Under the pieces are notes generated by a model. It did not search any database. It saw only the letters and a program-made list of their open reading frames with translations, and was not told where the DNA came from. A DNA stretch of 64,000 nucleotides from Gammaproteobacteria bacterium (lineage in GTDB: Bacteria > Pseudomonadota > Gammaproteobacteria > Steroidobacterales > Foliamicaceae), in the NCBI GenBank assembly GCA_965213995.1, contig OZ243929.1, forward strand, positions 899,324 to 963,323, read 5' to 3'. Positions 3,611 to 52,946 of this stretch are shown piece after piece. Both the position numbers and the translations under genes were made by a program. Position 1 is the first letter of the stretch, and every line of letters starts with the position of its first letter.

Positions 3611-3629
3611 CTGCTTGCTAATCCTCCGG

Positions 3630-3750
3630 CCGCTTCGCCGTCCCGCTTCCCCGGAGATGCCAACAAGCACATCCCTGTGGGCTCCGCGGCGGCATCCATG
3701 CCGCCGAGGCTCCGGGGAAGCGGGACGGCGGAGCGGCCTTTAGCAGGCGC
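3630..3750. repeat. nested-hairpin intergenic repeat, copy 1
   Basis: Arms CCGCTTCGCCGTCCCGCTTCCCCGGAG (3630-3656) and CTCCGGGGAAGCGGGACGGCGGAGCGG (3710-3736) are complementary with 1 mismatch. 53-nt loop containing CATCCATGCC. Right flank CCTTTAGCAGGCGC. Confidence 0.85.
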
Positions 3751-3826: not shown

Positions 3827-3959
3827 CCAGCTAAAGCCCTGTTCTTGCCCCTGCCTCGCGGGAGCGTCTGGGGCAGGATGCCCCAGCCGAGCCCCATGGA
3901 CGGGGTCATGCGTCTCCCGCGAGGCAGGGGCAAGAACAGGGCGAGGAGAACCCAAGGGC
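3827..3959. repeat. nested-hairpin intergenic repeat, copy 2
   Basis: Flank CCAGCTAAAGCC. Arm CTGTTCTTGCCCCTGCCTCGCGGGAG (3839-3864) is perfectly complementary to CTCCCGCGAGGCAGGGGCAAGAACAG (3914-3939). 49-nt loop with sub-hairpin CTGGGGCA-GGA-TGCCCCAG and CCATGG. Confidence 0.9.
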
Positions 3960-16686: not shown

Positions 16687-16854
16687 CGTTTATCTCCTCC
16701 CGCGCCCGGCGGGCGCACCGAATGACAAGTCCGGCCCCAACGACTGCAAGCGCCCTCGGGGCTTACCGCATGTCGTTACCAAGGAGAAGGGACATCGGAG
16801 ACTGCCCCGATGCTCGCTCCCGTCCGAAGGCAATGTCCCGACCGACGGACGAAC

Positions 16855-17030
16855 GACGCGATGGCAGGTCTCCTGGCTCGCCGATCAACGCTTTTTGGCC
16901 GCCTTCCCGGAGATATTCCCCAGTGGCATACGGGCCGCAAGCTTCCGGCTCACAGTTGCGGGTACAGCCTCGGATTCACACCGAGTTCCCTATTGGCCAC
17001 CTTGCGCAGGCGGCACCATCTGCCCCGCAT
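16855..17030 (-). promoter_or_regulatory. cobalamin (AdoCbl) riboswitch aptamer in the btuB leader
   Basis: The minus strand reads GGTGCC..AATAGGGAA..GGTGTGAATCC..CCCGCAACTGTGAGCC..GCCACTGGG..CGGGAAGGC..GAGCCAGGAGACCTGCCAT. The last block matches the B12-box consensus AGYCMGGAGACCKGCC. An expression platform follows, then SD GGAGGAG 6 nt before the btuB ATG. Confidence 0.85.
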
Positions 17031-17083
17031 AGTAGCGACCCCATCAGGAAAGTGTCAAGGCGCTGGCCGGGTTCACCACAGCC

Positions 17084-25567: not shown

Positions 25568-25691
25568 GGAGGGCGCTTCGATTCGCCCTCTGCTTGCTCC
25601 CTTCCTCCGGGAGACGCATAAATACATCCATGTAGCTTGCTCCGGCATCCCTGCCTCCGATACTCCCGGAGGAAGGGAGCAAGCAGAGGGC
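25568..25691. repeat. nested-hairpin intergenic repeat, copy 3
   Basis: Flank GGAGGGCGCTTCGATTC. Arm GCCCTCTGCTTGCTCCCTTCCTCCGGGAG (25585-25613) is perfectly complementary to CTCCCGGAGGAAGGGAGCAAGCAGAGGGC (25663-25691). 49-nt loop. Confidence 0.9.
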
Positions 25692-25717
25692 TTGCGGGAT
25701 GCCGACCCTCTTAGGGT

Positions 25718-25850
25718 CCGCGCCAGCCGAAGCCTTTTTGCGCGCTTGCCTCTCGCGGGAGACGCCATCCTTGGCTCGGTTCCGCCATCCATGGCTCCAA
25801 CGCTCCCGCGAGAGGCAAGCGCGCAAAAAGGCGAACCCGAAGCGACCTCC
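25718..25850. repeat. nested-hairpin intergenic repeat, copy 4 (loop in 'flip' orientation)
   Basis: Flank CCGCGCCAGCCGAAGCC. Arm CTTTTTGCGCGCTTGCCTCTCGCGGGAG is perfectly complementary to CTCCCGCGAGAGGCAAGCGCGCAAAAAG. Loop ACGCCATCCTTGGCTCGGTTCCGCCATCCATGGCTCCAACG. Right flank GCGAACCCGAAGCGACCTCC. Confidence 0.9.
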
Positions 25851-31950: not shown

Positions 31951-32236
31951 CCCGCTAAAGCCCTGCGCCTGCCCGCGCCTCGTGGGAGCGTCTGGGGCAG
32001 GGCGAGCATCGGGCGCTGCGCACGGCGCAGCGAGGCAAAGCATACCTTTGCCAGATGCGAGCGGGCCGACAGGAGGTCGGCCCCGGGCGTTGCTTTTTCG
32101 ATACTGCGCGGCAGGAATGCCAACAGCAACTTATGGGAAACAGGAGGATGGGTTCTTGACCTATGCAGGTCAAGCTTCAAATAGTCATGCGTCTCCCGCG
32201 AGGCGCGGGCAGGAACAGGGCGAGGAATGGCGGGGG
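31951..32236. repeat. long-form (about 270 bp) member of the hairpin repeat family, MITE-like
   Basis: Same termini as the short form: GCTAAAGCCC, arm CCTGCCCGCGCCTCGTGGGAG / CTCCCGCGAGGCGCGGGCAGG, loop ends CGTCTGGGGCAGG...GTCATGCGT. The interior is about 190 nt with at least 4 internal stem-loops. A near-copy lies in inverse orientation at 49970-50262. Confidence 0.85.
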
Positions 32237-33808: not shown

Positions 33809-33888
33809 TGCGAAACACGCATGCCGCGTTCCCGCTGGTCTTTTGCCCGCTGGCGCGCATAGCCTCGCTGCGCTGTATGCACGGCTAT

Positions 33889-34297
33889 GCCTTCGCCTTC
33901 GCTCGCCCTCGCCCTTTGCTTGCCCCTGGCCTCGCGGGAGACGCATGAACCCATCCATGGGGCTTGGCGGCGGCTGTCCTGCCGCCTTCGCTCGCCCTCG
34001 CCCTTTGCTTGCCCCTGCCTCGCGGGAGACGCATGAACCCATCCATGGGGCTTGGCGGCGGCTGTCCTGCCGCCTTCGCTCGCCCTCGCCCTTTGCTTGC
34101 CCCTGCCTCGCGGGAGACGCATGAACCCATCCATGGGGCTTGGCGGCGGCTGTCCTGCCGCCTTCGCTCGCCCTCGCCCTTTGCTTGCCCCTGCCTCGCG
34201 GGAGACGCATGAACCCATCCATGGGGCTTGGCGGCGGCTGTCCTGCCGCCGACACTCCCGCGAGGCAGGGGCAAGCAAAGGGCTTTAGCTGGCGCGG
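33889..34297. repeat. 88-bp tandem array (4 units) of hairpin-repeat left arm plus loop, closed by one right arm
   Basis: Units start at 33895, 33984, 34072 and 34160. Unit sequence: GCCTTCGCTCGCCCTCGCCCTTTGCTTGCCCCTGCCTCGCGGGAGACGCATGAACCCATCCATGGGGCTTGGCGGCGGCTGTCCTGCC. A single closing arm CTCCCGCGAGGCAGGGGCAAGCAAAGGGC lies at 34255-34283, then flank TTTAGCTGGCGCGG. Confidence 0.95.
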
Positions 34298-34298
34298 A

Positions 34299-34319
34299 TT
34301 GGTGCAATATGCGGGCAAG
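34299..34319 (-). repeat. recurring motif, reverse-complement copy (CTTGCCCGCATATTGCACCAA)
   Basis: The plus strand reads TTGGTGCAATATGCGGGCAAG. Lies between the 88-bp array and tRNA-Pro. Confidence 0.75.
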
Positions 34320-34406
34320 GAAACACAGCAAGCACCGCACGGCAAACTTGCCGCCTGAAATCTACCCGCCGGTGTTATCATGCGCTCCGCTGGCTCGGCA
34401 TGGCGG

Positions 34407-34483
34407 CGGGGTATGGCGCAGTCTGGTAGCGCGTCTGCTTTGGGAGCAGAAGGTCAACGGTTCGAATCCGTTTACCCCGACCA
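34407..34483 (+). tRNA. tRNA-Pro (anticodon TGG)
   Basis: Manual cloverleaf: acceptor CGGGGTA/TACCCCG, D arm GCGC..GCGC, anticodon stem TCTGC/GCAGA with loop TTTGGGA, T arm AACGG-TTCGAAT-CCGTT, encoded ACCA. Confidence 0.9.
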
Positions 34484-34525
34484 CTGCTTCATAAAAGCCG
34501 CCGCTTTCCCGCTTAACCAGTCGAT

Positions 34526-34602
34526 GCGCCTGTAGCTCAACGGGATAGAGCATCGGCCTTCTAAGCCGGTGGTTGCAGGTTCGAGTCCTGCCAGGCGCGC
34601 CA
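34526..34602 (+). tRNA. tRNA-Arg (anticodon TCT)
   Basis: Acceptor GCGCCTG/CAGGCGC, D arm GCTC..GAGC, anticodon loop CTTCTAA, T arm GCAGG-TTCGAGT-CCTGC, encoded GCCA. Confidence 0.9.
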
Positions 34603-34654
34603 TCGGCATCGGCGCAGGCGGTCGGCGAGCCGGGCACAGCGCATAACAAACCGT

Positions 34655-34731
34655 GGTGGGCGTAGCTCAGTTGGTAGAGCCCCAGATTGTGGATCTGGTC
34701 GTCGTGGGTTCGAGTCCCATCGTCCACCCCA
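34655..34731 (+). tRNA. tRNA-His (anticodon GTG) with G-1
   Basis: Extra 5' G, acceptor GTGGGCG/CGTCCAC, anticodon loop TTGTGGA, T arm GTGGG-TTCGAGT-CCCAT, encoded CCCA. Confidence 0.9.
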
Positions 34732-34826
34732 CCCTCCCCCGCATCGAAGGCACCCCCTCCTTGCGGCCCAAAGCTATGGCAATATGGCACCCTCACCGGC
34801 GTGGCGCTCAACGCCACGCCCACACC

Positions 34827-34900
34827 GGGCCGTTAGCTCAACTAGGTAGAGCAGTGGACTCTTAATCCATTGGTTGCGGGTTCGATTCCCTCACGGCCCA
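34827..34900 (+). tRNA. tRNA-Lys (anticodon CTT), no encoded CCA, T-stem C:U mismatch
   Basis: Acceptor GGGCCGT/ACGGCCC, anticodon stem GTGGA/TCCAT with loop CTCTTAA. T arm GCGGG-TTCGATT-CCCTC (CCCGC expected). The discriminator A is followed by CTC, not CCA. Confidence 0.8.
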
Positions 34901-35034
34901 CTCACTTTCTGTAGCCCGTGGTCCTGCTGGAAAAACTAACGCCAAGAAGGACAAGTGATCATTAACGTCGCCATGCTGCACACCGCCTATTGACCTGTGG
35001 ACGCAAGTATTCGGTCTGTGGCTGGTTCGCTCCG

Positions 35035-35487
35035 TTATCGGGCATCGCCCAAGAATGCGCCAATAAGCTGCTTTGCGTAATGAGAAGCGGATCGGCGAAT
35101 TAGCCAACGGCTTGCGAATAGGATCAAAAAGTAAATTGCCGTTAAGGCGAGAAAGACCCAACCCATGGTCGTATCGACGTGCCAGATAAGACCAGCAGCG
35201 CATACAACGGCAGCTATGATGCTTCCTCCCGCCAAGTTTCGAAAGAAGCCGTACTCCCAATTTCTCTGCAACAATAGCGGCGATCCTCCGGCTGCCGCCC
35301 GAATGCGAGCCACTATGTCGCGGACTTGACGACGTGCCGCGATCTCGTCCCTTTCGCACAATTCGGGTGATGGCAGCTTCATGTTGAATTCCGTCTTTAC
35401 TTTTTCCGCAATTGCAACTTCGCATAGTTCGATCTGCCTGCTTGCACTCGCCATCATTTCCCAGTAGGGTTTACAGATTATATCCAT
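35035..35487 (-). CDS. small membrane protein with two C-terminal TM helices
   Basis: ORF 35035..35667 trimmed to ATG 35487 (MDIICKPYWEMM...) so that it does not overlap the divergent XRE gene; Met at 35457 is an alternative. TM segments GGSIIAAVVCAAGLIW and GWVFLALTAIYFLILFA. No recognised domain. Confidence 0.5.
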   Translation of the reverse strand: MDIICKPYWEMMASASRQIELCEVAIAEKVKTEFNMKLPSPELCERDEIAARRQVRDIVARIRAAAGGSPLLLQRNWEYGFFRNLAGGSIIAAVVCAAGLIWHVDTTMGWVFLALTAIYFLILFASRWLIRRSASHYAKQLIGAFLGDAR

Positions 35488-35497
35488 ATTGGATATA
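35479..35497. promoter_or_regulatory. perfect palindrome TATATCCA-TAT-TGGATATA in the divergent promoter region (putative XRE operator)
   Basis: 8-bp arms with a 3-nt spacer, read directly. Lies in the 35-bp gap between the 2TM gene and the XRE-ImmA gene. Confidence 0.45.
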
Positions 35498-35522
35498 TGT
35501 GTAAACTTAGGAGGAGCGAAGG

Positions 35523-36593
35523 ATGTTGGCACAACGACTGCACCGGGCACGGCAGGCGAGTGGCTTTTCGCTGCGGGCGCTGGCGGAGAAAGTTGGGGTT
35601 TCGGCAATGATGATTTCGAAGTACGAACGCGCTCAGTCCGTACCGTCCTCGGAGGTTCTGCTCTCATTGGCTAAAGCGCTCGGCGTTCGTACCGAGTACT
35701 TTTTCCGCACGTCTACAGTCAACCTTGAACGCATTGAACACCGTAATCGGAATGTTTGGAAATTGCCGAAAAGCGCGGAGAAAAAGGTACTCGCCGATGT
35801 AAGTGATCAGCTTGAGCGCTGGTTAGTACTCGACGATGTAATTCCTGCACCTTGGTCGACCCCATTCTCGTTGCCCATGGATATTCCTGAATCAGTGGAT
35901 AACTTGAATACGATCGAATCGATAGCTTCGCTAGTGCGAAATCACTGGGATCTCGGCCTGAATCCCATACCAGATCTTATTGATTCGTTGGAATCGCGCG
36001 GACTCAAGGTGTTCACGACAAAATTTGACGATCCACGATTCGAGGGAATGAGTGCGATGGCCGATGAACATTACATCATCGTTGTCAGCGGCCATTGGTC
36101 CGGTGATCGCCAACGATTTACCTTGGCTCATGAACTCGGCCATATCGTTTTAGACGATCGCCTTACGCAGGAAATTGACAAAGAAGACGCTGCAAATCGT
36201 TTTGCGGGCGCCTTCTTGGCGCCGGAAGAAAAGGTTATGGAAACCTTGGGCGCAAAACGTCGGGCTTTGGAATTCGCCGAACTGTATCTGTTGAAACACG
36301 AATTTGGATTGAGTATGGCCGGGTGGAGTTATCGAGCACTCAATCTGAACATCGTCACAAAAGCATCCCACAAGGCGTTTTGGACTGACTTTGCTGCCAA
36401 AGGGTGGAATGTAGAGGAACCTGGTCAACCATATCCTTCAGAATCGCCTCGATTGTTTCAGCAAACTGTCTATCGCGCACTCAGCGAGGAATTGATTGGT
36501 GAATCCAAGGCTGCGGAACTGCTATCCATAACTGCAAATGAACTCGCCGCTCGACGGCGGATGGAGATCGTTAATGGCGATTCTGGTCGGTGA
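35523..36593 (+). CDS. XRE-family HTH fused to ImmA/IrrE zinc metallopeptidase
   Basis: AGGAGG RBS, ATG start. N-terminal HTH (FSLRALAEKVGVSAMMISKYERAQSVPS) and HEXXH motif in FTLAHELGHIVL (COG2856-type). Confidence 0.85.
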   Translation: MLAQRLHRARQASGFSLRALAEKVGVSAMMISKYERAQSVPSSEVLLSLAKALGVRTEYFFRTSTVNLERIEHRNRNVWKLPKSAEKKVLADVSDQLERWLVLDDVIPAPWSTPFSLPMDIPESVDNLNTIESIASLVRNHWDLGLNPIPDLIDSLESRGLKVFTTKFDDPRFEGMSAMADEHYIIVVSGHWSGDRQRFTLAHELGHIVLDDRLTQEIDKEDAANRFAGAFLAPEEKVMETLGAKRRALEFAELYLLKHEFGLSMAGWSYRALNLNIVTKASHKAFWTDFAAKGWNVEEPGQPYPSESPRLFQQTVYRALSEELIGESKAAELLSITANELAARRRMEIVNGDSGR

Positions 36594-36741
36594 TGCAAAT
36601 ATCTTTATTGACGTCACTGTTTCAAATCTCTCTGAGGCAATGTTCCGTCTTGAAGACACCATCGCCACACCGGATGTTTTGTATCAAGATGAGCTTCTGC
36701 AACACCACCCGGAATTACCAGGCTTAGGGTTGCAAATTAAT
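36574..36741 (+). pseudogene. PIN-like nuclease gene truncated by an IS end
   Basis: MAILVGDANIFIDVTVSNLSEAMFRLEDTIATPDVLYQDEL resembles the N-terminal strand-Asp-helix of PIN-like (DUF3368/DUF4411-type) partners of XRE-ImmA genes. The reading frame runs into the IS inverted repeat at 36742. Confidence 0.5.
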
Positions 36742-37080
36742 TGTGCGGGTTCAGGACATGTGGGACTGGCGGGGTTCAGTTGTCCTTTGCTTGCGAAAGT
36801 ATTCCATCGGGGTCATCAAGTCCAGCGCGCAGTGGGACCGGACATGGTTGTGGAAGCGCTGGTATTCGGCCAATGCGGGCGCGGCGTACTTGGCGGTCTT
36901 TCTCCTCGGCAGAGGTTCCAGAACTCGGTTGTGGAGCTGTCGCTGGCGCGCTCGACGATGCCATTGATCTCGGGGCATTTGGGCGGCAGGACGGCCAGCG
37001 GGAGGCCGAGCGCCTGGCAGGCGCACTTTCGTCCAGTATCTAGAAGCCGTAATCCCCTACTACTGCGACAGAGTAGGCCA
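36742..37080 (-). mobile_element. IS remnant: right inverted repeat plus frameshifted 3' third of a DDE (rve) transposase
   Basis: IR TGTGCGGGTTCAGGACATGTGGGACTGGCGGGGTTCAG at 36742-36779. Minus-strand fragments read LLDTGRKCACQALGLPLAVLPPKCPEINGIVER... and, after a frameshift, YQRFHNHVRSHCALDLMTPMEYFRKQ. These correspond to the DNG..F, P.TNGKVER and YN..RPH.AL...TP motifs of IS3/IS481-type integrase cores. Confidence 0.65.
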
Positions 37081-37296
37081 GCAACTGCGGCGCTAGACCT
37101 CACCTGCTCCCCTAAAGAAAGAACGAAACGAGGGCCTAGCTGAGAGTGCAAATTAGAAAATCCAGTCAAAGACTGCGCCAAGTTTCATCTCGGATCGGAT
37201 AAAACAACCCTCACGCCCGCGTAAGTTTCGCTTTGTTCCCTGTTATGGTTGCGCGGCGGTTAGCGACATCCCGAGGCAAGCGACCACTCACGGACA

Positions 37297-38313
37297 ATGA
37301 GCGAAACAATAGCAGTGCGCGTCGAACCGGGAGAAACGCTCTCGGAGATTGCCATCCGGCACAGCGTCACCGTCGAGCAATTGCAGGAATGGAATCGGAT
37401 CGAAGAAGCGGACTATGTGCAGGCGGGCCAGAGAATCGTCGTCCATAAGGCGGCGGTTGCTCCAGGCTGGAACGAAGCGGCCGCCCCTTGGGATGCATTG
37501 CTGGGAGGAGCGCTCGTTGTAGCGGCACTGTTATTCCTGTTCCGCCGCAAACGCCAAACTCCGACTTCGTCGCCTGATACCGGAGTCCGCCCACCGAAAA
37601 AAGCACCACATCGGCCCGAACCGAAATCCGCTGCGGCATTGCGGAAACCCGCGCCGCCAGCAAACGCCGGCGAGCAACGGGTCCGATCAGTGTTGGCGAG
37701 GCGTTATCGGGACTGGCCGCTGCTTAATGACGTGCTGCTTCCGTCCGGGGGAGGGACGGCACAGATCGATCACATCCTCATCTCGCCCGCCGGCGTGTTC
37801 GTAATCGAGACCAAGGACATGGGCGGTTGGATATTCGCAAGTCCCGGGCAGCAACGGTGGACGCAAACATTGCCGGCGGGCCGTTGGTCCCGCATGATGG
37901 GCATCAAGTCGAGGCGGTTCCCTTTCTACAATCCGCTGCGGCAGAATGAAGGGCACGCGAAGGCCTTGGTCAAACTCGGCATCGTTAATCCTAGGGAGAT
38001 TCGGCCTGTCGCCGTATTCGTGGGCGAGGCCGAGATGAAAACGGAGGAGAAGTTCGCAGGATTCGAGGAGCATGAAGAGAAGGCAAAGCGGTTCCGTAGC
38101 TGGCGAATGCGAGGCGTTGTCTGCATGAGCCTGCGGGAGTTGCGGCGCTACATCGCCTTCTCCGTTCGTGCGCCATCAGGACCAAGCCTGACGCGCGAGA
38201 GGATGGAAGCGATCCGGTCAAAGATAGCAAAAGCTGCCCTGCCCTTGACGGCGGAAACTCACGCCAGACATGTCGAGTTCGCCCGGTCTGCTGAACGAGC
38301 ATCGTGGCAATGA
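37297..38313 (+). CDS. LysM - transmembrane - NERD domain fusion protein
   Basis: LysM: VRVEPGETLSEIAIRHSVTVEQLQEWNRIEEADYVQAGQRIVV. TM: ALLGGALVVAALLFLF followed by RRKRQ. NERD: GEQRVRSVLARRYRDWPLLNDVLLP..TAQIDHILISPAGVFVIETKDMGGWIF. Confidence 0.75.
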   Translation: MSETIAVRVEPGETLSEIAIRHSVTVEQLQEWNRIEEADYVQAGQRIVVHKAAVAPGWNEAAAPWDALLGGALVVAALLFLFRRKRQTPTSSPDTGVRPPKKAPHRPEPKSAAALRKPAPPANAGEQRVRSVLARRYRDWPLLNDVLLPSGGGTAQIDHILISPAGVFVIETKDMGGWIFASPGQQRWTQTLPAGRWSRMMGIKSRRFPFYNPLRQNEGHAKALVKLGIVNPREIRPVAVFVGEAEMKTEEKFAGFEEHEEKAKRFRSWRMRGVVCMSLRELRRYIAFSVRAPSGPSLTRERMEAIRSKIAKAALPLTAETHARHVEFARSAERASWQ

Positions 38314-38495
38314 ACCGCAATATCGCATGTTTGGGCTGGGGGCCTCTCATCTGGGATCCCCCGAGATCACGCACAAGTCAGCCGAAATCGGTCCCGTCAA
38401 GAATGCTCTTTAGGTGGTCGCGCCACGCGGCTTTGCCGTCTTCATCGGAAACTTCCTGCCACAGATGGTTCAGTATCCCTCTGGCGCGCTCCCGG

Positions 38496-39125
38496 TCAGG
38501 CGAAGCCATTGCTGCCGGAAGCCGGATCGAAATTCATCCACAATGATTCCCGCCTGATGCTCTTGGAGGAGTTGCAGATTTTCTCCGGCGCATCCACTCG
38601 GCGCCAATCGCCGAACAGCTCGTCGTAAAGATCGCATCGGTATCCTGAAAGCACCGCCCGACCCTTCACGCTTTGCAGCGCAGCAGCCATGTCGCGGTGG
38701 TCCTGGTCGGTCATTTCATGCCCGTAAGCACTCGAATCCCCTCGGCTGTTATGAACATAAGGAGGATCCAAGTAGAAAAGCGTTTTCGGCGTGTCGTAGC
38801 GTTGGACAACTTCCAAGGCGGGAGCGTTCTCGATCTGCACTCGCTGCAATCTTTGCGCGATTTCCGGCAGCCCTTCAACCGCTCCTAGCCAACGGGAAAC
38901 AGCGCCAGCCATGCCGGCTCTGGAAGTCAGGACGCAGTGAGCCCAACGCCCTTCGCTGCTCGTTTGCGCGAGCCCCGTGCGGGTTTGCCGCGCCCGAACG
39001 TAGAACCGGCGGGCACGCTCAAGAGATGACAGGTTCTCCGATGAGCCGCACGCTTTGACGAGTTCCGCTCTTGAGAACGGCGTCAGCCCGATGCCACGAA
39101 TAAGATCGTCGGGCTGGTCGCGCAA
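38496..39125 (-). pseudogene. D12-class (Dam-like) N6-adenine DNA methyltransferase lacking its N-terminal SAM-binding region
   Basis: Catalytic FYLDPPY motif and a Dam-like C-terminal half. The ORF opens right after an in-frame stop (39135-39137) and begins at a TTG. The usual N-terminal 60-90 residues (KWAGGK...FxGxG) are missing. It abuts the Fic gene stop. Confidence 0.65.
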
Positions 39126-39140
39126 AACGGCAATTCAGGA

Positions 39141-40481
39141 TTAGCCCAGCTTCCGCAGTCGCTCTTCGGTATTTTCCGCCGGACGGAAGATAAATGAGCG
39201 ACCGCGTTTGGTCATTTTCAGCAAACCGAGGTCAGCGAGCTTAAGCAGATCGGTTCGAGCCGTTTGATAGGTTACGTTGTGTGAAGTCCGGTGGCTGCGG
39301 ATCGTATATAGCTGATCGGGCTGCTTTCGCGCGGAAATCAATAGCGCCATCTGTCGGTGGTTAAGAATGGTTGTCAGCGCCGATCCGGCAAGAAGGCGCT
39401 GAACCTCGGAAATTTCTTTTGATTTTCGCGCCAGGTACTTGTGGAGCCGCTCAATCGCGCCAAGAATGACGCGAAGGTTGTAGTCAATGAAATAGGTGGC
39501 GTCATTGTCATCGGTTTCCGAAAAAATATACGACCTCGCGTACTGCGCTGGCGCTTTGCGAATAATGGTCGAGATTGAAAGGCACTCCGCCATCCAGTAC
39601 CCGGCGCGCGCCATGGCCCAGTAGAAAAGAGCGCGAGCGGTCCGCCCGTTGCCGTCAACAAACGGGTGCTCGTAGCCGATCATGAAGTGCAGGAGCACGG
39701 CCTTAATCACAGGATGAATGAACGAGGCGTCGTCCGTATGATTGGCAAAACGGAAAAGGTTATTCAGACGTTCTTCGAGATGGGCGGCATTGGGCGGAAT
39801 ATGCAGCACCTCGTTGTCCCGGCTGTCAATAACAAGCACCTCATCCTCGGCTCGCCTGAACCGGCCCGCAATGCCTGCATCGTTCGTCGTGCCCTCGACG
39901 AGGATGCTCTGCAGCTCCAGCAGCAAGGACATGGACAGATTCTCCCCGCCGAGTTCTCGAAGAAACTCCATGGCGCGGTAATTGTTGGCAATCATCCTTT
40001 CGCTTTTGGTCTGCGGTTCGCGCCCGGTTCGCAGCATCTCCTTGGCGACGCGGCGGGTTGTGGCAGCGCCCTCTAGTTGACTTGAGGTAATCGCTTCTTC
40101 GATCAGCGAGCTCACTAGGTAGCGATTCCGCGATTGCGGATTCACAACGTCAACCGGCAATTCGATACGACCGCTGGCATCGCGATCGATCTGGTGAAGC
40201 ATCCGGTTCAGATACCCTGAGTCGCTGAACGAAAATCGGCATCCGTTCTTGTCAGCAAGCGGAAGCTCGTGTCTTATCGAAGCCCTTGCGAACTTTATTG
40301 CCAGCCACCATTCTTCATTGGATATCCCCTCAGGTGGCTGCATGTGCTTCAGTTTTGACCAATGCGCATATCGGTCATTCGGGATATTCCCCACTCCGGA
40401 TGAGACCAGATTCAGGATTTTCCTTGCCTGCTCATGGGAATCCAAGCCGCTCAGGGAAGGCAGCGGAGAAGGCAGCTTCAT
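39141..40481 (-). CDS. Fic-family protein (AMPylase type) with autoinhibitory helix and C-terminal winged-helix
   Basis: Fic motif HPFVDGNGRTARAL and inhibitory motif SSQLEG. Start placed at ATG 40481; the track start at 40520 is TTG. Confidence 0.88.
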   Translation of the reverse strand: MKLPSPLPSLSGLDSHEQARKILNLVSSGVGNIPNDRYAHWSKLKHMQPPEGISNEEWWLAIKFARASIRHELPLADKNGCRFSFSDSGYLNRMLHQIDRDASGRIELPVDVVNPQSRNRYLVSSLIEEAITSSQLEGAATTRRVAKEMLRTGREPQTKSERMIANNYRAMEFLRELGGENLSMSLLLELQSILVEGTTNDAGIAGRFRRAEDEVLVIDSRDNEVLHIPPNAAHLEERLNNLFRFANHTDDASFIHPVIKAVLLHFMIGYEHPFVDGNGRTARALFYWAMARAGYWMAECLSISTIIRKAPAQYARSYIFSETDDNDATYFIDYNLRVILGAIERLHKYLARKSKEISEVQRLLAGSALTTILNHRQMALLISARKQPDQLYTIRSHRTSHNVTYQTARTDLLKLADLGLLKMTKRGRSFIFRPAENTEERLRKLG

Positions 40482-40525
40482 TGAGAATAAACCTAGACTG
40501 GAAGGCAAGCCAAATATCAATTTTC

Positions 40526-40598
40526 TACTAATTCATATCAAATTAGTAACTCGTGGCGCCCAATGTAAATAAAATACTAATTAATGTCAAATTAGTAT
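40526..40598. promoter_or_regulatory. two operator-like palindromes upstream of Fic gene 1
   Basis: TACTAATT-CATATCA-AATTAGTA (40526-40548) and ATACTAATT-AATGTCA-AATTAGTAT (40574-40598). Both have the same half-site and a 7-nt spacer, in an AT-rich region. Confidence 0.5.
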
Positions 40599-40624
40599 TT
40601 TGATTCAGGCTAGCGCGCTCAGAT

Positions 40625-40663
40625 CAACCCGATCCCAGTCCCGCATGTGTCTGAACCCGCACA
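40625..40663 (+). mobile_element. solo IS terminal inverted repeat (IRL-type)
   Basis: ...CCCAGTCCCGCATGTGTCTGAACCCGCACA. Its last 20 nt are identical to 17101-17120. It is in inverted orientation relative to the IS end at 36742. Confidence 0.55.
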
Positions 40664-40831
40664 TGACTCCACCGGCCGCCAACAATCATGTGATAGTATG
40701 CACACATGATTGCTATCACAAGAGGCGTTGAACATGCTGGCCTTAGGAACTAGCACGGCTTGCCGGAATCGGCGGCTGGGTCGGCCCGTGAAACGCCAAA
40801 CGATAGCAAGACACCACTACTTGGAGGAGTC

Positions 40832-41491
40832 ATGTATATTAAATCCCCCCCCCCCCCTTCAAAAAAACTAGCGCTACTTGCAGCAACCGCACTGCTATCC
40901 GCCACCCAGCTAGCATTAGCAGCACCTGGAGTATCTCTGGGCACAAAGCAAAGCAACATGGGCGGAAGTGAGCTCACCCTTTCATTGACCTGCGGTACGA
41001 AAGGATATCTCGCCACAGGGGTTGGAGAGGACCATGCGACCTATCTGGGGCAGCGACAGCGTAGTGACGGCTCCAACACGACTCCGTTGGAGTCCGGGCT
41101 CGTCAATCTTGCGTCCACGTACTTCTACGTCCGAGGGGTAGGTATCGGAAGAGCATCGGATGACGGTAATTTCTCGCCCCTTCCAGAAAATCATCCCGGG
41201 CGTGCCTGGGGCGCAAAGAGATGGGGAGATTTATGGGGTGCCGTCATGCAGCCTCGTTACGAGGTTGACATTGAGTTGACCGCGACTCCACAGCCGGACC
41301 CTCCGGTGTATTTCGTAACTAACAACACTAGCGGTATTCCAGTCGAGAGCAAGACTGTGATCGTTCAGCGCAGGTATGACACCCCATACGCAGAGCAAAA
41401 CGTGAGCTTGGTGCGTTACTGCGATCTCAATTCCAAAGAAACGATCAGTGTCACCATCAATGGAAGGATCACAGGCAAAAGGCCATTGTGA
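40832..41491 (+). CDS. secreted hypothetical protein with a C13 tract in its signal-peptide codons
   Basis: GGAGGA 4 nt upstream of ATG 40832. MYIKSPPPPSKKLALLAATALLSATQLALA|APG looks like a Sec signal peptide. The mature part has no recognised domain. Confidence 0.6.
   Translation: MYIKSPPPPSKKLALLAATALLSATQLALAAPGVSLGTKQSNMGGSELTLSLTCGTKGYLATGVGEDHATYLGQRQRSDGSNTTPLESGLVNLASTYFYVRGVGIGRASDDGNFSPLPENHPGRAWGAKRWGDLWGAVMQPRYEVDIELTATPQPDPPVYFVTNNTSGIPVESKTVIVQRRYDTPYAEQNVSLVRYCDLNSKETISVTINGRITGKRPL
40845..40857 (+). repeat. homopolymeric C13 tract followed by TTC and A7
   Basis: Counted directly: 6 C at 40845-40850 plus 7 C at 40851-40857. A7 at 40861-40867. Confidence 0.95.
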
Positions 41492-41749
41492 TCCTTGAGA
41501 CGACCGACGGAAGCATGGTGGAGTCATGATCCGTTGCCCTCCTCACCATCCCTGCACTCGCGACGGCGGAGCTATGCGACGACCACTGGTACGACAACCT
41601 CCATCGAAAAATCGAACCCGATAACTAACTCTACGCGGGGATTACCGGAGCAAGGCCTTGGGCCTGTACTCCGACACCATCATGCGCCCGGCTGCGGAAA
41701 TCGAAAAGCATCTGGCGCGGCGGAAGGCGGCGCAGGAAGCGGAAAGCCG

Positions 41750-42679
41750 TTAGGCGCGCTGATCCGACCAGGCGGCCACGATTTCGGCGGCCGGGGCCGA
41801 CCAGATGCCGGCCTGCTCCGAAATATGCTTCAAAGCCGATTCCAAGGCGGCGATGCGATGCGGCTGGCCCATGAGCCAGGGATGGATGGACAGGGCCAGC
41901 AGCCGCCCGTGCCCGGTGGCCTCGGCCTCCGCCAAAAGGTAATCGCAGGCATCCTTCACTTGCTCGGCGTACTCCCATTCCGAGTGCAGATTGCTCTGGA
42001 TAATGAACTGGTCGTCGAGTTCCAGCGATAGAGGCAGCGCAACCAACTCGCCGTGCCGGATGGCGAACGGATAGGGCATATCGTCGTTGATCCAGTCGCC
42101 CATATAGCGCAGTCCGGCCTCGGCGAGCAGATCCGGCGTGTTGTGGCTTTGCGACCGCGCCGGGCTTAGCCAGCCCGTAACGGGTTGATCCACGGCCGCG
42201 CGCAGGGCGCTGAGCGAACGGTCGATCAACTCGCGCTCGTCTTCAATAGCCAGCTCGCCGTGATGCAGGGTGTCCATGTGCCAGGAACTCGCCAGAATCT
42301 CGTTGCCGCGCCGGTTCAGGCGCTCTAGCAACTGCGGGCAACGCTCGGCGATGGCCGCGTTCACGGAAAAAGTAGGCGTGAAGCCCGCATGGTCCAGCGC
42401 TTCGAGGCAGCGGAACAGGCCCACCCGGTTGCCGTAATCGCGCAGCGTGTAGTGGCGCAGGTCCGGGTACGGGGTGCTCATGCCGCCCGGCGGGGGAAAC
42501 GGCTTGCCGCGCTGGTTCAGCGGGAAGAACTGCACCGCCAAGTTGATCCAAAGCGCCAGCCGGGCGCCGTTGGGCCATGCGACCGGAGCGCGGCGCGACA
42601 GCATCGACCACTCGTAGCGGTTGTGGTCCATGCCGTAGCGGCGGCGCTCGTATTTCAGGTAGGCCGGGTCAAGCGCCAT
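41750..42679 (-). CDS. polysaccharide deacetylase-family hydrolase (PuuE/allantoinase-like), paralog 1
   Basis: ORF 41750..42757 trimmed to Met MALDPAYLKYERRRYGMDHNRY. Motifs RDYGNRVG and WHMD... are typical of the divergent NodB-fold family. Confidence 0.75.
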   Translation of the reverse strand: MALDPAYLKYERRRYGMDHNRYEWSMLSRRAPVAWPNGARLALWINLAVQFFPLNQRGKPFPPPGGMSTPYPDLRHYTLRDYGNRVGLFRCLEALDHAGFTPTFSVNAAIAERCPQLLERLNRRGNEILASSWHMDTLHHGELAIEDERELIDRSLSALRAAVDQPVTGWLSPARSQSHNTPDLLAEAGLRYMGDWINDDMPYPFAIRHGELVALPLSLELDDQFIIQSNLHSEWEYAEQVKDACDYLLAEAEATGHGRLLALSIHPWLMGQPHRIAALESALKHISEQAGIWSAPAAEIVAAWSDQRA

Positions 42680-43616
42680 TGCCGCTGGCCTCCGAATCCT
42701 CCCTGCCCCGCTGCGCCGCGGCTTGGTCGTAATAGTGCTCCACGAAGTGCTCGGCAATTTCCCGGGCCGTGGCCACCCACACGTCCGGATGCCCGGTGAT
42801 ATAGGCCAGCGCGTCCTCGAACGCGCGCAGCCGGTGCGGATGCGCCACCTGGTAGGCGTGCAGCGGCACGCACATCACCGTGCCGCCCCGCTCGCCTTCC
42901 CGGCGGAGCCGGTCGAAGGCCTGCTTGATCATGGCACCGTAACGCCTAGGCTCGATGCGGTTGACCACATAGACGATGGTGTCGTTGAGTTCCAGCGAGT
43001 AGGGCACGGAAACGAACGGCTTGCCGGAGCGCACCCGCACCGGCGTGGGCTGGTCGTCGTGGAAAAGATCGCAGGTGTAAAGCCCGCCGGCCTCGCTGAA
43101 CAGGTCGAGCGTGCGCTCGGTATGGGTGAGGGCCGGGGCCAGATAGCCGGAGCACTGCTGCCCCGTGTGCTTGGCGATGGCGCGCACCGAATCCTCAATC
43201 ATGGATCGCTCCTGAGCCTCGTCCATGCCGTACACGTAGCGCGTGTTGTAGATGCCGTGGCTGAAGAATTCCCAATTGCGCTCGCGGCACATGTCGATGA
43301 TCTCGGGATGGTGCTCGCACAACGCCACCGACAGGCTCACCGAGCCGCGCACGCCGTGGCGGTCGAGCACCTCCATCATGCGCGCATGGCCCACCCGGTT
43401 GCCGTAGTCGCGCGTTCCGTAGCCCTGGATATCGGGCGCCGGGCGCGGCCAGGCCTTGCGCTGCGGATTAGGCGGCGGATCCAGTTCGTAGAACTCGATA
43501 TTGGGCGCCACCCAGAAGGCGACCCTGGCGCCGCCCGGCCAGCGGATCGGCAGGCGCTCGTCCCAAGCGCGGTAGTCGTAAAGGGCCGGATCCTCGCGCA
43601 CTGGAAATACCCGCAA
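42669..43616 (-). CDS. polysaccharide deacetylase-family hydrolase, paralog 2
   Basis: Shares RDYGNRVG, HGV..S.S..A and PWL/HPHR-type blocks with paralog 1. The track start is TTG, so the start is uncertain. Confidence 0.75.
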   Translation of the reverse strand: MRVFPVREDPALYDYRAWDERLPIRWPGGARVAFWVAPNIEFYELDPPPNPQRKAWPRPAPDIQGYGTRDYGNRVGHARMMEVLDRHGVRGSVSLSVALCEHHPEIIDMCRERNWEFFSHGIYNTRYVYGMDEAQERSMIEDSVRAIAKHTGQQCSGYLAPALTHTERTLDLFSEAGGLYTCDLFHDDQPTPVRVRSGKPFVSVPYSLELNDTIVYVVNRIEPRRYGAMIKQAFDRLRREGERGGTVMCVPLHAYQVAHPHRLRAFEDALAYITGHPDVWVATAREIAEHFVEHYYDQAAAQRGREDSEASGNGA

Positions 43617-43623
43617 ACCGCCC

Positions 43624-44337
43624 CTAGAAGCCCGCGCCGCGCGCCTGACGGATCGGCTCGCAGCCGGGATGGCTCTTAAGCCAGCTTTCCACTGCGGCGA
43701 AAGGCTCCACGTCCGCGTACTTGAGCATGATGTCGCAAAGGTTGGCGAAATGCGGAATCTCGTGCTTGTCGGCCACGCACTCCTCCGGCACGACGGTCCG
43801 ATAGCCGTGCGAAAGCGAGGCGACCGCCGAGGCGCGCACGCAGCCGGACGTGCTGCCGCCGGTAAGGATCACCGTATCGACCTTGTGCCAAACCAAAAGC
43901 GAGGGAATCAGGCTGTCGTGGAAAACGCTCGCCATGCGCTTGTTGACCACGGCATCGCGGTCGCGATCGACCTCAAGGCGCGGGTCGAGCTCCGCCCGGG
44001 CGCCGCCCTCCTTGATATTCTGGAGCGAATGCTCGGTATTGGTGCGCGTGCCCCAAACGCCGGCATCATCGGCGTTGCCCATGTAGGCCACGTAGGTCCA
44101 GATCACCGGCATGTTCCGGCCGCGCGCCAGCGCCGACAGACGGTTGATATAGTCGATCTGGCCGGGGTCCGTCTGGTAGGCCGTGGGAAAGCGGTCGATA
44201 TCCGTATAGGCGCGCTGCAAATCGATATTGATCAGCGCCGCTTTTTCGCCGAAGCCGAAACGCGCCCGGTTAGGGTTGGACTTGACCTCTTCCCAATACT
44301 GGCGCGGCGTCAGATTGGAGGTTTGCATCTTTGGCAT
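43624..44337 (-). CDS. isochorismatase-family cysteine hydrolase
   Basis: ALINIDLQRAY (Asp), VNKRMASVF (Lys), and TVILTGGSTSGCVRASA (catalytic Cys). Confidence 0.8.
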   Translation of the reverse strand: MPKMQTSNLTPRQYWEEVKSNPNRARFGFGEKAALINIDLQRAYTDIDRFPTAYQTDPGQIDYINRLSALARGRNMPVIWTYVAYMGNADDAGVWGTRTNTEHSLQNIKEGGARAELDPRLEVDRDRDAVVNKRMASVFHDSLIPSLLVWHKVDTVILTGGSTSGCVRASAVASLSHGYRTVVPEECVADKHEIPHFANLCDIMLKYADVEPFAAVESWLKSHPGCEPIRQARGAGF

Positions 44338-44432
44338 CGGCGCACCCGGGCAATGGCATGACGGTCGATAAAGCCCATGTTAATCCATCAACGGCTTGAA
44401 GCCGGCCTCGTCGTTGCCGAACCCGCCGGCAA

Positions 44433-45524
44433 TCAGGGGCCCTCGGACAGGAGCGCCAGCAGCGGCGGGTTGATGTAAAGGTTTTCGCGGCCCGCCTTCA
44501 TCTTCTCCAGAATGGCCTCGTCCGCCAAAGTGTTCAGATAGACGGCGGCCGTCTGGCGCTGTCCTATGCCCGCCCTGACCACATCGTTCACCCGGCAGTA
44601 GGGATTCACGAAGATCAGTTCCACCAGTTCCCGGGAGTAGATTTTCGGCAACTTCCACCGGATTGCGGAGGTTGTCTCGTCGAGAAGCCTGCGGATTGCG
44701 CGGATTTTCTCCGTGGTCCATTCAGCTGTCGTCCTGACGGCTTCCAGCATGAAAAGGATCCATGCCTCCCAATCCTGTCCGGTCGTCACCGCGAGCAGGT
44801 GCCGATAGTAGAGCGCCTTGTTCCTGATGATGTATCGGCTGAGATAGAGAACAGGAATATCAAGCAGATTCTTGTCCACAAGAAAAAGCAGGTTCAACAC
44901 CCGCCCGGTTCGACCATTGCCGTCCGCAAACGGGTGGATCGCCTCGAACTGATAATGCATGACCGCGAGCCGGATCAAGGGATCGATCTCTTCGGCCCCG
45001 TGGATATAGCGTTCCCAATTGGCCAGTTTCGTCCGAATCAAGTCCTCTCCCGCAGGCGGCGTGTAAATCAACTTTTGGGTCGCGTCATTGATCAGGGCCG
45101 TTCCAAGGACTTTGCGAATATCGAGATCGATGCCCTTGATGATTCTGCACACCTCAACGGCCATGGCGGTCGCAGCCGGCCGGTTATTCAGCATCTCGAA
45201 GCCCCTGTGGAGGGCGGTGCGGTAGCGCAGGGCCTCCTTAGTGGCGGGATCCGCCCGGCCTGTCGCATCGTTGGCATGGCGGAACAGCCGGTCAGCCGTC
45301 GTGACGATGTTTTCGATCTCGGAACTCGCTTGGGCTTCAAGCAGCGGGATCGAGTTGATCAGCACGGACTGGTTCGGAATGAGCTTCCCGGAAGCCCGCA
45401 GTTCCGCCAGCGCCGCGCGTGCCGCGATGCAACTGCGGAGAATCGTCTTTGTCTCGGTTTCCGCGGCGGGCGGCAGGTCCGGCAATTCGTTGTATGGACG
45501 CGCAGGGTCGAATGACTGGGGCAT
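44433..45524 (-). CDS. Fic-family protein with Fic_N domain
   Basis: ORF 44433..45596 trimmed to ATG 45524 (MPQSFDPARPYNELPDLPP). Inhibitory motif SSEIEN and Fic motif HPFADGNGRTGRVL. Confidence 0.9.
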   Translation of the reverse strand: MPQSFDPARPYNELPDLPPAAETETKTILRSCIAARAALAELRASGKLIPNQSVLINSIPLLEAQASSEIENIVTTADRLFRHANDATGRADPATKEALRYRTALHRGFEMLNNRPAATAMAVEVCRIIKGIDLDIRKVLGTALINDATQKLIYTPPAGEDLIRTKLANWERYIHGAEEIDPLIRLAVMHYQFEAIHPFADGNGRTGRVLNLLFLVDKNLLDIPVLYLSRYIIRNKALYYRHLLAVTTGQDWEAWILFMLEAVRTTAEWTTEKIRAIRRLLDETTSAIRWKLPKIYSRELVELIFVNPYCRVNDVVRAGIGQRQTAAVYLNTLADEAILEKMKAGRENLYINPPLLALLSEGP

Positions 45525-45562
45525 GTTGTCCTGTATCCCGCTGATGCGGATGGGTCCGCGGA

Positions 45563-45623
45563 ACATGTCGATTTTATCGACATGTCGCTGAAACATGTCG
45601 ATAAAATTGAATTATATCGACAT
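45563..45623. promoter_or_regulatory. two operator-like palindromes upstream of Fic gene 2
   Basis: ACATGTCGAT-TTT-ATCGACATGT (45563-45585, perfect 10-bp arms) and ATGTCGATA-N11-TATCGACAT (45595-45623). Confidence 0.5.
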
Positions 45624-45643
45624 ATCCTAACGCAGCAAGCAGT

Positions 45644-46015
45644 TGTGCGGGTTCACCACATATGGGACTTTTCGAGTTCAGCCGTCCTATGTTTGCGAAG
45701 GTATTCCATCCCTGTCCGGCATCTGGCGGACCACCCGCGAAGCCATCGCCAAGCACTACCTCAACCACCACGCCGCAAAGCGAATAGCCGTTCCGCGCTT
45801 TGCCCAAAGCCGTGCCGTCAGGATGAAGTCTTTCGTCCGACAACCAGCGCTTCTGTCATCCTGTTCCTTAGATTCTCCGCCGCGCCCAAATGGTAGAAAT
45901 GCGAGAAGGTTCTAATCTCATATTCCCGGAAGGATTGATGCAGCCGCTCATTTTTCCTGTACTTGTTTTCAGACCACATCGAATCGCCCGTTCCTCCATG
46001 AAGTGCAACCCTAAG
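45644..46015 (-). mobile_element. second, more degenerate IS remnant of the same family (right IR plus decayed transposase 3' end)
   Basis: IR TGTGCGGGTTCACCACATATGGGAC... at 45644. Minus-strand fragments read SENKYRKNERLHQSFREYE (compare P.TNGKVERF..TLK.E) and MEYLRKHRTAELEKSHMW* (compare MEYFRKQRTTEPRQSHMS* in remnant 1). Confidence 0.55.
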
Positions 46016-46018
46016 GCA

Positions 46019-46657
46019 TTAGGAGAAACTGAAATCTTCGAAGCGCTGTTTCAAAGCTTGTTTGTTAGGCTTTCGCGCCCTGTTTTTCGGCTCACGTAGA
46101 GGTCGGCCGTGATACTTCCCGTAGCCGCTATTGCGGAGTTCCGCTTTGACCACAACCTTGAAGCTGCCCGGATCGATAGTTATTAGGCCGCAGTCGAACA
46201 GCGTGTGAATATCGGCGCGGAGCAGGAGCCCGTTGCTTACGCAGCTCGTGCCTTTATCTGCGTACGGGTGAATATGCGCCGCCTCCAATACATCCTGAAC
46301 CGCGCATTTAGTGATCGCACACTTGTGTTCATAGGCTTCAAGCAATCCTTGCCGAAATGCACTTTGTCCGCGGCGTTGCAGGATCAATGTATTGATCCGT
46401 TCCCATGCCCCCTCGATCGTTTCCAGGTTGCCTGCGTCATCGTCCGCAGCGTCCGGTGAAAGCGGTGACAGACCGCCGAGTGGGCCAAGCACCTCCTGCA
46501 GTTTCTTGCGATTCTCCTCCTTCGGACGGCGAGTCCCACGCTCCCAATGAGAAATCATTCCCGTAGACACGCCAATTTTCTCTGCGAGCTTGGCTTGCGT
46601 AAGACCAATTTCGAGACGACGGCGCTGCATGCTTTTGCCAAGACTGTTATCACTCAT
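46019..46657 (-). CDS. XRE-type HTH fused to HNH_2 endonuclease domain
   Basis: AAGGAG RBS, ATG start. HTH: LTQAKLAEKIGVSTGMISHWERGTRRP. HNH: CAITKCAVQDVLEAAHIHPYADKGTSCVSNGLLLRADIHTLFDCGLITID. Confidence 0.8.
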   Translation of the reverse strand: MSDNSLGKSMQRRRLEIGLTQAKLAEKIGVSTGMISHWERGTRRPKEENRKKLQEVLGPLGGLSPLSPDAADDDAGNLETIEGAWERINTLILQRRGQSAFRQGLLEAYEHKCAITKCAVQDVLEAAHIHPYADKGTSCVSNGLLLRADIHTLFDCGLITIDPGSFKVVVKAELRNSGYGKYHGRPLREPKNRARKPNKQALKQRFEDFSFS

Positions 46658-46739
46658 TGCTGATTTCTCCTTGGATGGCAGATTGAGGTTATCTTGCCCG
46701 TTTGTTGATTGTTCTTAATTGGCGCTACCCCGCCTTCTG

Positions 46740-47549
46740 CTAGCGTGACAGAGCCTTGCTGATTTGCTGGCAGAATTTCTTTCTTTCAGGGGCTTCTGTG
46801 TAGAGCACAGCCTGCTGCAGGTTTGAATGGCTCGTGCCTTCAACCTCGGAGAGCGCGAACCTCTTGCCGCCCGGATTTTCTGGATCGTCCTCGTAAGAGT
46901 AGGACATGAAGATGATGTTGACGGTGCTGTCCCGCACGTCCCGCGTCCGCATGAATTCCGCCTTGGCCCGCACGTATTCGTACAAGACATCCTGCATCAC
47001 CGCGACAATCTTCGTGCCCCAATGATGATGAAAATATCCCTTTCGTATGAGCTGCGTGATGTAGCGCTTATAGACATTGTCGAAGTTAAGCCCGTAGCTT
47101 TTCTTCGTCTCCATCTGCCGCACTTCGCGCATGGCCGAGTAGGCATCCCCCACCGTTCCAGTGATATCAATGGCTTGCAGTTCAACCGATAAGAACTGGC
47201 CTATGCCGCCCTCTTCATCGACATCGGCCACAACGAAATCCACGTTGCCAAAGCCCGTCATCTTTACTTCGCGGGCCACCTTGGGATTCACAGGCGGGTT
47301 TCCGGGCCAGCAATGCTTGACAACATCGCTCAAGAAATCGACTTGATTGAAGCGTTTGGGACACACGCATACCTGCCTGCCCAATTTCCAAATTGAGCAG
47401 ACCGGATAAGGCTCCTTGAGGGAAGTGCTGCGCTTGACGCACTGCGTTCCCAGGAACGGGCACGTGAACGAATGGGCGGACGGATCGAGTCCTGGCTCTG
47501 CGGGCCGACCCAAGACCTCGCAAATGTATTCTCTCGGATCAGACGGCAA
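46740..47549 (-). CDS. type II restriction endonuclease, NotI-like fold
   Basis: The N-terminal Cys cluster FTCPFLGTQCVKRS..PYPVCSIW..VCVCPKRF resembles the NotI Fe-Cys4 motif (CPFL..C..VC..VCP.R). Later blocks LSVELQAIDITG and GLNFDNVYKRYITQL parallel NotI. Overlaps the Dcm gene by 11 nt. The start is TTG and uncertain. Family assignment is from memory, not from a search. Confidence 0.6.
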   Translation of the reverse strand: MPSDPREYICEVLGRPAEPGLDPSAHSFTCPFLGTQCVKRSTSLKEPYPVCSIWKLGRQVCVCPKRFNQVDFLSDVVKHCWPGNPPVNPKVAREVKMTGFGNVDFVVADVDEEGGIGQFLSVELQAIDITGTVGDAYSAMREVRQMETKKSYGLNFDNVYKRYITQLIRKGYFHHHWGTKIVAVMQDVLYEYVRAKAEFMRTRDVRDSTVNIIFMSYSYEDDPENPGGKRFALSEVEGTSHSNLQQAVLYTEAPERKKFCQQISKALSR

Positions 47550-48693: not shown

Positions 48694-48791
48694 TGCCCTA
48701 GCTCCTTGGCTTGATGCGTGGTTGGCATGTTCGCTGCCTTGCTCCGCAACGGTCGGATTGCATTATCCTAAAGCAAAAGCCTTTTCGCGGG

Positions 48792-50295: not shown

Positions 50296-50360
50296 CTCCC
50301 ATAGCCTGTTCTTGCCCCTTCCTTCCGGGAGTATTGGAGGCAGGATGCCGATCATCAGGG
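50296..50360. repeat. half hairpin-repeat element (left arm plus loop start only)
   Basis: CTGTTCTTGCCCCTTCCTTCCGGGAG followed by TATTGGAGGCAGGATGCCGAT. No matching right arm before the next element begins. Confidence 0.7.
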
Positions 50361-52667: not shown

Positions 52668-52710
52668 TTTGCTGGCTCGGTTTCGCGTTGATTGAAGCGC
52701 CGCGTTTGCG

Positions 52711-52876: not shown

Positions 52877-52946
52877 GCGCAGGCTTTTCTTGGCAGAGGC
52901 GGCAAGAGGGTAGAATCCGCTCGTTCATTTCGGCAGCTCCTCCCCT

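Follow-up and report, generated by a model that had tools for sequence, protein, structure and literature searches.

A reversed hairpin tip in a GC-rich, perfectly palindromic, TwoAYGGAY-like repeat family of an uncultured gammaproteobacterium

How can two copies of one intergenic hairpin repeat have the same flanks in the same order and carry tips that read in opposite directions? This question is raised by hairpins A (25732–25832) and B (50376–50476) of the window, the 64,000-nucleotide stretch of DNA analyzed here. The host is an uncultured gammaproteobacterium. It is most closely related to metagenome-assembled genomes, among them JAPYNE01 (~92% identical at the nucleotide level across syntenic genes), JAPOTY01, and Candidatus Foliamicus. 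An earlier note on this DNA had concluded that at least one inversion across the arms had occurred, and had offered two mechanisms for it: an inverton-like switch, or a flip/flop in a fold-back intermediate.

Opposed tips in two hairpins with the same flanks

Both hairpins consist of 30-nt arms that are 100% complementary and enclose a 41-nt spacer. They sit between chromosomal genes, at internal sites and not at the ends of a linear replicon: A lies between two convergent genes, one for a trypsin/PDZ protease with its end at 25551 and one for a UbiH-like FAD monooxygenase that ends at 25892 on the opposite strand, and B between a divergent ThiF-like gene and an H+-pyrophosphatase gene. The left flank and left arm align directly (25713–25761 vs 50357–50405, 90% identity), in agreement with the earlier reading that the flanks are the same and in the same order. 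That reading also took the arms to be inverted repeats, as they are, but gave their length as 28 bp, which we measured as 30 bp. The full 101-nt hairpins of A and B are 87% identical as an inverted repeat, whereas direct alignment gives 60% over the right half. When reverse-complemented, the loop of A matches that of B at 36 of 41 positions, compared with 11 of 41 in the direct register, which confirms the earlier description of opposite 41-nt loops differing by five substitutions. The arms of the two copies differ at four positions, each of which is mirrored in the opposite arm. Furthermore, a covariance model of the tip, trained only on tips of the 49-nt type with A and B left out, gave the tip of A 57.4 bits on the minus strand versus 19.3 on the plus strand, and the tip of B 58.9 bits on the plus strand versus 18.9 on the minus strand. 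The opposed orientation of the two tips is real and far beyond chance.

A and B are members of a dispersed family of intergenic hairpin repeats, with at least 11 full or partial copies in the window (Table 1) and many more in related genomes. Related loci were collected by a pattern scan of a genome collection with CTCGCGGGAG-N30-60-CTCCCGCGAG; the matches listed were mostly unrelated sequences, and at least ~25 useful related loci were among them. A family copy is laid out as a left flank of ~15 nt, an arm, a tip, the complementary arm, and a different right flank (~15 nt). The arms are 29–30 bp long and end in CTCGCGGGAG or a close variant, and the tips measure 41 or ~49 nt, or 204 nt in two window copies. 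A given subtype of arm tends to come with a given subtype of flank, which indicates that the inherited unit includes the flanks. Copies are often paired head-to-head via a conserved linker, and A forms a two-hairpin composite with its partner, hairpin X. The same linker and the same two hairpin types were found in four related loci (L034, L040, L049, and L081), in all of which the A-type member has canonical polarity. The L049 tip is the reverse complement of A's tip at 41 of 41 positions and stands in canonical polarity at a non-orthologous site; L049 was considered as an orthologue of A and rejected, as its match is limited to the repeat region.

Table 1. Coordinates of the hairpins, their parts, and other family copies in the window
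Feature	Position	Strand	Remarks
Family copy	3628–3738	minus	Left member of a (−)(+) pair
Family copy	3836–3942	plus	29-bp perfect arms, 49-nt tip
Hairpin X	25585–25691	minus	29-bp perfect arms, 49-nt tip, canonical; 83.6 bits on minus
Linker X–A	25692–25717		Equals the reverse-complemented left flank of X
Left flank of A	25718–25731	plus	CCGCGCCAGCCGAA, family left-flank motif in plus orientation
Left arm of hairpin A	25732–25761		30 nt, 100% complementary to 25803–25832
Tip of A	25762–25802	minus	41 nt; CA(N)GGAUG hairpins read on minus, inverted relative to A's flanks
Right arm of hairpin A	25803–25832		Pairs with left arm
Right flank of A	25833–25850	plus	GAACCCGAAGCGACCTCC, family right-flank motif in plus orientation
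Family copy	31960–32221	plus	204-nt tip
Tandem array	33836–34283	minus	88-nt units, partial copies; ends in one complete hairpin (34176–34283)
Family copy	49986–50246	minus	204-nt tip; L159/L160 orthologue with ordinary 50-nt tip
Half hairpin Y	50304–50349	plus	Left arm and tip start; right half replaced by linker and B
Left flank of B	50362–50375	plus	CCGCGCCAGCCGAA
Hairpin B	50376–50476	plus	Arms 50376–50405 and 50447–50476, tip 50406–50446, canonical polarity
Right flank of B	50477–50493	plus	GGAATCGAAGCGCCTCC
Half copy	52711–52739	minus	One arm and tip start; abuts next hairpin
Family copy	52753–52862	minus	Arm/flank type as in A and B, 50-nt tip, canonical polarity

Some copies depart from this plan. 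The two 204-nt tips retain the normal tip ends and hold ~155 nt of extra, structured-looking sequence, which matched no Rfam family. In the tandem array, four partial copies follow one another head-to-tail, each made up of a flank, a single arm, and the greater part of the tip. The array lies immediately upstream of four clustered tRNA genes (Pro, Arg, His, and Lys, 34407–34901), a position at which the relative L090 has a single copy. A low-GC stretch (34300–48700, 55–58% vs ~65%) starts just ahead of these tRNA genes, ends near a C5 cytosine DNA methylase gene (47539–48693, minus strand), and is probably a genomic island; within it lie 68-nt direct repeats (36741–36808 and 45643–45710) that are 81% identical. 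A tandem repeat at 63582–63896, with ~9–10 units of 33 nt that are 67–89% identical, is probably a coding repeat. At Rfam gathering thresholds the window yielded only tRNAs and a cobalamin riboswitch (16846–17036, minus strand, 126.8 bits), and matches to microRNA-precursor families were set aside as generic long-hairpin matches.

Tip polarity across the family

To decide which of the two copies deviates requires a rule for the family. Relative to the strand that bears the GGA loops, family members have ...GCGCCAGCNNAA/GCC on the left and GGC/GRRNNNRAAGCGCC on the right. We oriented 48 hairpins from the window and related genomes by their GGA strand, 11 of them from the window's own genome, and scored the 47 that had enough flank with leave-one-out position matrices in both orientations. 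The strand calls of the covariance model agreed with the GGA-strand orientation. Canonical polarity was found in 38 of the 47 hairpins, which upholds the earlier observation that loop direction tracks flank direction in the other copies that can be oriented, and a random 50:50 orientation was rejected (p ~1e-8). B obeys the rule with a score of +25.6 bits; A is therefore the deviant copy. Its score was −30.6 bits, and its flanks read in reverse scored +19.9 bits. A's tip is thus reversed against the family rule, in support of at least one inversion across the arms. All ten of the other window copies are canonical.

Two further hairpins, both in the sister genome L080, are probable flips (L080:6134–6259, −21.2 bits; L080:2075–2183, −15.1 bits), which suggests that the event recurs. 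A third candidate, L081:5337 (−10.4 bits), was rejected as an artefact of a truncated arm, and the rest of the scored copies had weak or undecided polarity scores. Pairs normally have the arrangement (−)(+), whereas X–A is (−)(−) and the L080 pair 6134/6390 is (+)(+). In each of these two pairs the flanks retain the pair layout and a single tip is reversed.

The census bears directly on the proposal that the tip can be turned when the element is copied, by a fold-back or hairpin intermediate that may be resolved either way, as at parvovirus or poxvirus termini. Several properties of the family would suit such an intermediate: the fold of the tip is Y- or T-shaped, a long stem topped by two small hairpins, the arms are kept perfectly complementary, and close relatives differ by gain and loss of copies. 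However, it predicts flips and non-flips at ~1:1, and we counted 38 canonical hairpins against one certain and two probable flips. Moreover, flanks, arm subtypes, and a fixed tip polarity are passed on as a set, and the copies occupy internal chromosomal sites. We regard this mechanism, one of the two that the earlier note had named, as extremely improbable.

The reversed tip could also be an assembly error in which the inverted repeat collapsed in the assembly graph, given that k-mers of up to 31 (≤31) cannot unambiguously place a 41-nt segment with perfect 30-bp inverted repeats on either side. Against this, a protein 100% identical to the H+-pyrophosphatase of the window is recorded on a 2.48-Mb contig, and relatives in the clade have hifiasm-style contig names, which would suggest that the window, too, was assembled from accurate long reads reaching across the element. 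An error confined to A would also have to be squared with the uniform polarity of the other window copies. An assembly error is, in our view, very unlikely.

Arm pairing, exchange between copies and the origin of the flip

The arms are paired with unusual fidelity. Thirty-seven of 48 stems are perfect, and only 12 of 1312 pairs are not Watson–Crick, three of which are G/T. In an alignment of the inner stem, G·U and U·G pairs are present and A·C pairs are absent; over the full arms this asymmetry is 3 vs 2, too weak to be used for choosing the folded strand. Had selection acted on an RNA helix, many G·U pairs should have accumulated at the divergence seen between copies. Their near absence suggests instead that one arm is copied from the other at the DNA level. 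The arms thus appear to be kept paired at the DNA level, with the GGA-bearing tip as the conserved part.

Copies also exchange parts with one another. A complete hairpin, Y, lies upstream of the pyrophosphatase gene in L159 and L160 (H+-pyrophosphatase 97–98% identical), whereas the window has only the left half of Y, fused to the linker and B (50304–50476 vs L159:850–1430 and L160:650–1215). The Y/B junctions fall in sequence common to family members (GGCAGGGATGCC and GGCGGAATCGAAGCG). This fusion directly documents ectopic exchange among members of the family. Downstream of the pyrophosphatase gene, a repeat block of ~225 nt (52690–52915) is absent in L159 and L160, which have a 58-nt spacer there, and no target-site duplication was evident at this insertion on comparison with the two relatives (one junction). 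At the same position, the 94% relative L163 has a different hairpin subtype.

The A locus itself has turned over in the relatives. At the position of A, L096 has a nested hairpin with quite different arms and a 49-nt tip, in canonical polarity between homologous flanks, which indicates that cassettes are replaced within flanks. L094 and L162 have a deletion remnant at this locus, and in some relatives the contig ends inside the repeats. Among the relatives compared, none had an uninverted A at the orthologous locus and none had A's own arms there; the inversion is therefore read from the family rule rather than seen directly. In a sister genome, at L009:1–96 (minus strand), orthologous to ~25.6 kb of the window, an ORF start, MTHHTVGVDISKNRLDAHRLPDGEAARFSND, is inserted right after a hairpin arm and runs to the contig end. 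These 32 residues had no match in Pfam or PDB, and no full copy was found; we take MTHHTVGVDISKNRLDAHRLPDGEAARFSND to resemble the N-terminus of IS110-family transposases. IS110-family transposases target palindromic repeats.

Such turnover opens another route to a reversed tip, namely a separate insertion or replacement in which a whole hairpin cassette, arms and tip together, entered a pre-existing flank site in reverse. Cassette replacement of the kind seen in L096 speaks for this route, as does the placement of B at its locus by exchange with another copy. It fits less well with the arms of A, which are of the type that normally accompanies its flanks, and free insertion in two directions would give many more flips than were counted. 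We consider a reversed cassette unlikely.

The second mechanism of the earlier note, an inverton-like switch in which recombination between the arms toggles the strand of the GGA module within the population, would account for an orientation-dependent module between perfect 30-bp inverted repeats and for recurrent flips (A and the two probable cases in L080). The flipped A also places both modules of X–A on the strand of the downstream ubiquinone-hydroxylase-like operon. An inverton, however, depends on an invertase and in most cases on a promoter, and its segment must be long enough for synapsis; 41 bp is a very short spacer across which a site-specific recombinase would have to synapse. No recombinase gene was present among the neighbors checked with Pfam (protease, FAD monooxygenases, M24 peptidase, PfkB kinase, and epimerase), and neither a sigma-70-like promoter nor a terminator was found in or near element A. 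A scan of metagenome contigs specific for the arms of A returned 0 matches and hence no second allele, and a single polarity is kept in 38 of 47 copies. We therefore give very little credence to a programmed switch at A.

The flip of A is probably a rare, unprogrammed inversion through its 30-bp inverted arms, B and the family being canonical. We infer that the inverting event used these arms, and it might have done so in three ways: by an inter-strand template switch within copy A, by recombination within copy A between its inverted arms, or by conversion from another family copy paired in reverse register, a pairing that the palindromic arms would permit. Inversion within the copy, conversion in reverse register, and reinsertion of a reversed cassette would leave indistinguishable outcomes. 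Inter-strand template switching inverts the loops of perfectly paired hairpins and leaves no footprint in the stem, and it introduces several compensatory changes into the stem in a single event (Mönttinen and Löytynoja, 2022; PMC8794818). It would thus explain both features of A, the inverted loop and the mirrored arm changes, and the same DNA-level process would account for the perfect Watson–Crick arms of the family despite the divergence between copies. As a consequence of the flip, the GGA module of A now lies on the minus strand, the same strand as that of its partner X.

A therefore looks like a rare structural mutation within a TwoAYGGAY-like family of GC-rich, perfectly palindromic repeats. 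As such, it is a clean natural example of the inversion of a large (41-nt) hairpin loop that fits the template-switch model, and it illustrates how, in scans of sequence only, an inverton can be imitated by perfect inverted repeats around a short spacer. A bolder version of the idea is that tips invert in vivo at a measurable rate with no recombinase, via cruciform formation or template switching at the perfect arms. We hold this to be a long shot; if it were true, the repeats would be strand switches that need no recombinase, and each flip would move a CsrA-type binding module to the opposite transcript in convergent or divergent gene pairs.

The GGA module and its likeness to known systems

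The tip is the conserved, strand-specific part of the element. Identity between copies is 80–87% in the tips versus 53–59% in the distal arms. In the 49-nt tips the fold comprises two small hairpins, and 12 of its 19 predicted pairs show compensatory changes. In each of the 48 tips CA(N)GGA(U)G is matched once or twice, on a single strand, with no match on the opposite one, and the motif CA(N)GGA[UCA][GA] occurs 88 times in these tips against 1.9 expected from shuffles. The loop sequences are AUGGAU and AAGGAU in A, AGGGAU twice in B, and AUGGAU with AGGAU or AGGGAU in the 49-nt tips. Moreover, a 21-mer of the tip, GGTTCCGCCATCCNTGGCTCC, also occurs in several hairpin families with unrelated arms on metagenome contigs, which suggests that the module, and not the arms, is maintained.

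Two other groups of elements came to light around this module. A separate hairpin family shares the 21-nt tip module (L101, L108, L111, L117, L123, L128, L143, L156, L158, and others, among them Ga0182737_* and Ga0160451_* contigs), and many of its copies have a (CAACRG)n hexamer microsatellite ahead of them. At L100:6762–6912 there is a structured element of ~150 nt with a long outer stem and two CAUGGAUG hairpins, and similar elements occur at ~25 marine metagenome loci (L099, L103, L105, L106, L113, and others). The L100 element scored 28.2 bits with the TwoAYGGAY model, below the gathering score of 43, and its arms are unrelated to those of the window family.

The Rfam model TwoAYGGAY (RF01731) also aligned to A, on the minus strand, with 27 bits against the gathering score of 43; B and the copy at 3836 had no match at E ≤ 1. 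Because the score is below the threshold, we call the family TwoAYGGAY-like and not a member. The loops of TwoAYGGAY have been noted to match the CsrA-binding motif (PMC4333381). In the present family, GGA in the hairpin loops, at two or more sites, fits the CsrA/Rsm-binding consensus by sequence. The module might act as an RNA, for example by binding a CsrA-type protein, a suggestion that we draw from this motif resemblance, our sole lead to a function. A tblastn search with E. coli CsrA found no csrA in the window and related loci, ~0.3 Mb of the clade. Among unpaired copies, the GGA strand showed no clear preference for the sense or antisense strand of neighboring genes (8 sense vs 5 antisense, tallied manually with crude gene calls). 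With head-to-head pairs, transcription from either direction runs through one module in sense and one in antisense; in the X–A pair, both sense modules are on the strand of the monooxygenase operon. A is a natural experiment: if the module works as RNA, it should act here on the transcript opposite to that of its relatives. The repeat family itself is a more interesting object than the single flipped copy; it places the orphan TwoAYGGAY-type module, in uncultured gammaproteobacteria, on mosaic, perfectly palindromic repeats with a fast turnover.

Among known systems, invertons share with A the inverted repeats around a segment whose orientation matters; they differ in that the spacer here is 41 bp, neither promoter nor invertase was found nearby, and polarity is fixed in nearly all copies. 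The inverted terminal repeats of parvoviruses likewise have a long stem capped by two small internal palindromes and configurations that are reverse-complementary to each other, but the present sites are chromosomal and internal, and flip and flop are far from equimolar. As in MITEs, the arms are terminal inverted repeats, and copies present in the window are absent in 97–98% relatives, although the 52690–52915 junction bears no evident target-site duplication. REP/BIME elements (REPINs) are also short intergenic palindromic repeats that occur in clusters of alternating orientation, form mosaic composites, and turn over rapidly between strains; a further likeness is that the present family is possibly a target of an insertion, presumably of IS110 type. 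Unlike in REP/BIME, it is the tip and not the arms that is conserved in the present family, the arms are not themselves palindromic, and the family consensus lacks the GTAG-type conserved end. The loop inversions described by Mönttinen and Löytynoja (2022) resemble that of A in that the loop is inverted between intact, perfectly paired stems with no footprint. Those rRNA loops, however, are mostly 4 nt and at most 7–8 nt long, compared with 41 nt in A and 49 and 62 nt in the probable cases, and the mechanism at A is a proposed one.

The likeness to TwoAYGGAY lies in the module itself. That motif has two terminal AYGGAY-like loops (CAUGGAUG) enclosed by a P1 stem that its discoverers described as "often very large" (Weinberg et al., 2010, supplement), to which the 29–30-bp arms of the present family, perfect in 37 of 48 stems, correspond. 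The Rfam consensus hairpin GCCAUGGAUGGC is literally contained in the tip of A, and according to the seed alignment the motif is multi-copy in another gammaproteobacterium, Psychromonas ingrahamii. In contrast to TwoAYGGAY, one of the two loops in the present family is usually AGGAU or AGGGAU and not AYGGAY, the elements are GC-rich with perfect 30-bp arms, and they have asymmetric conserved flanks and paired, mosaic arrangements.
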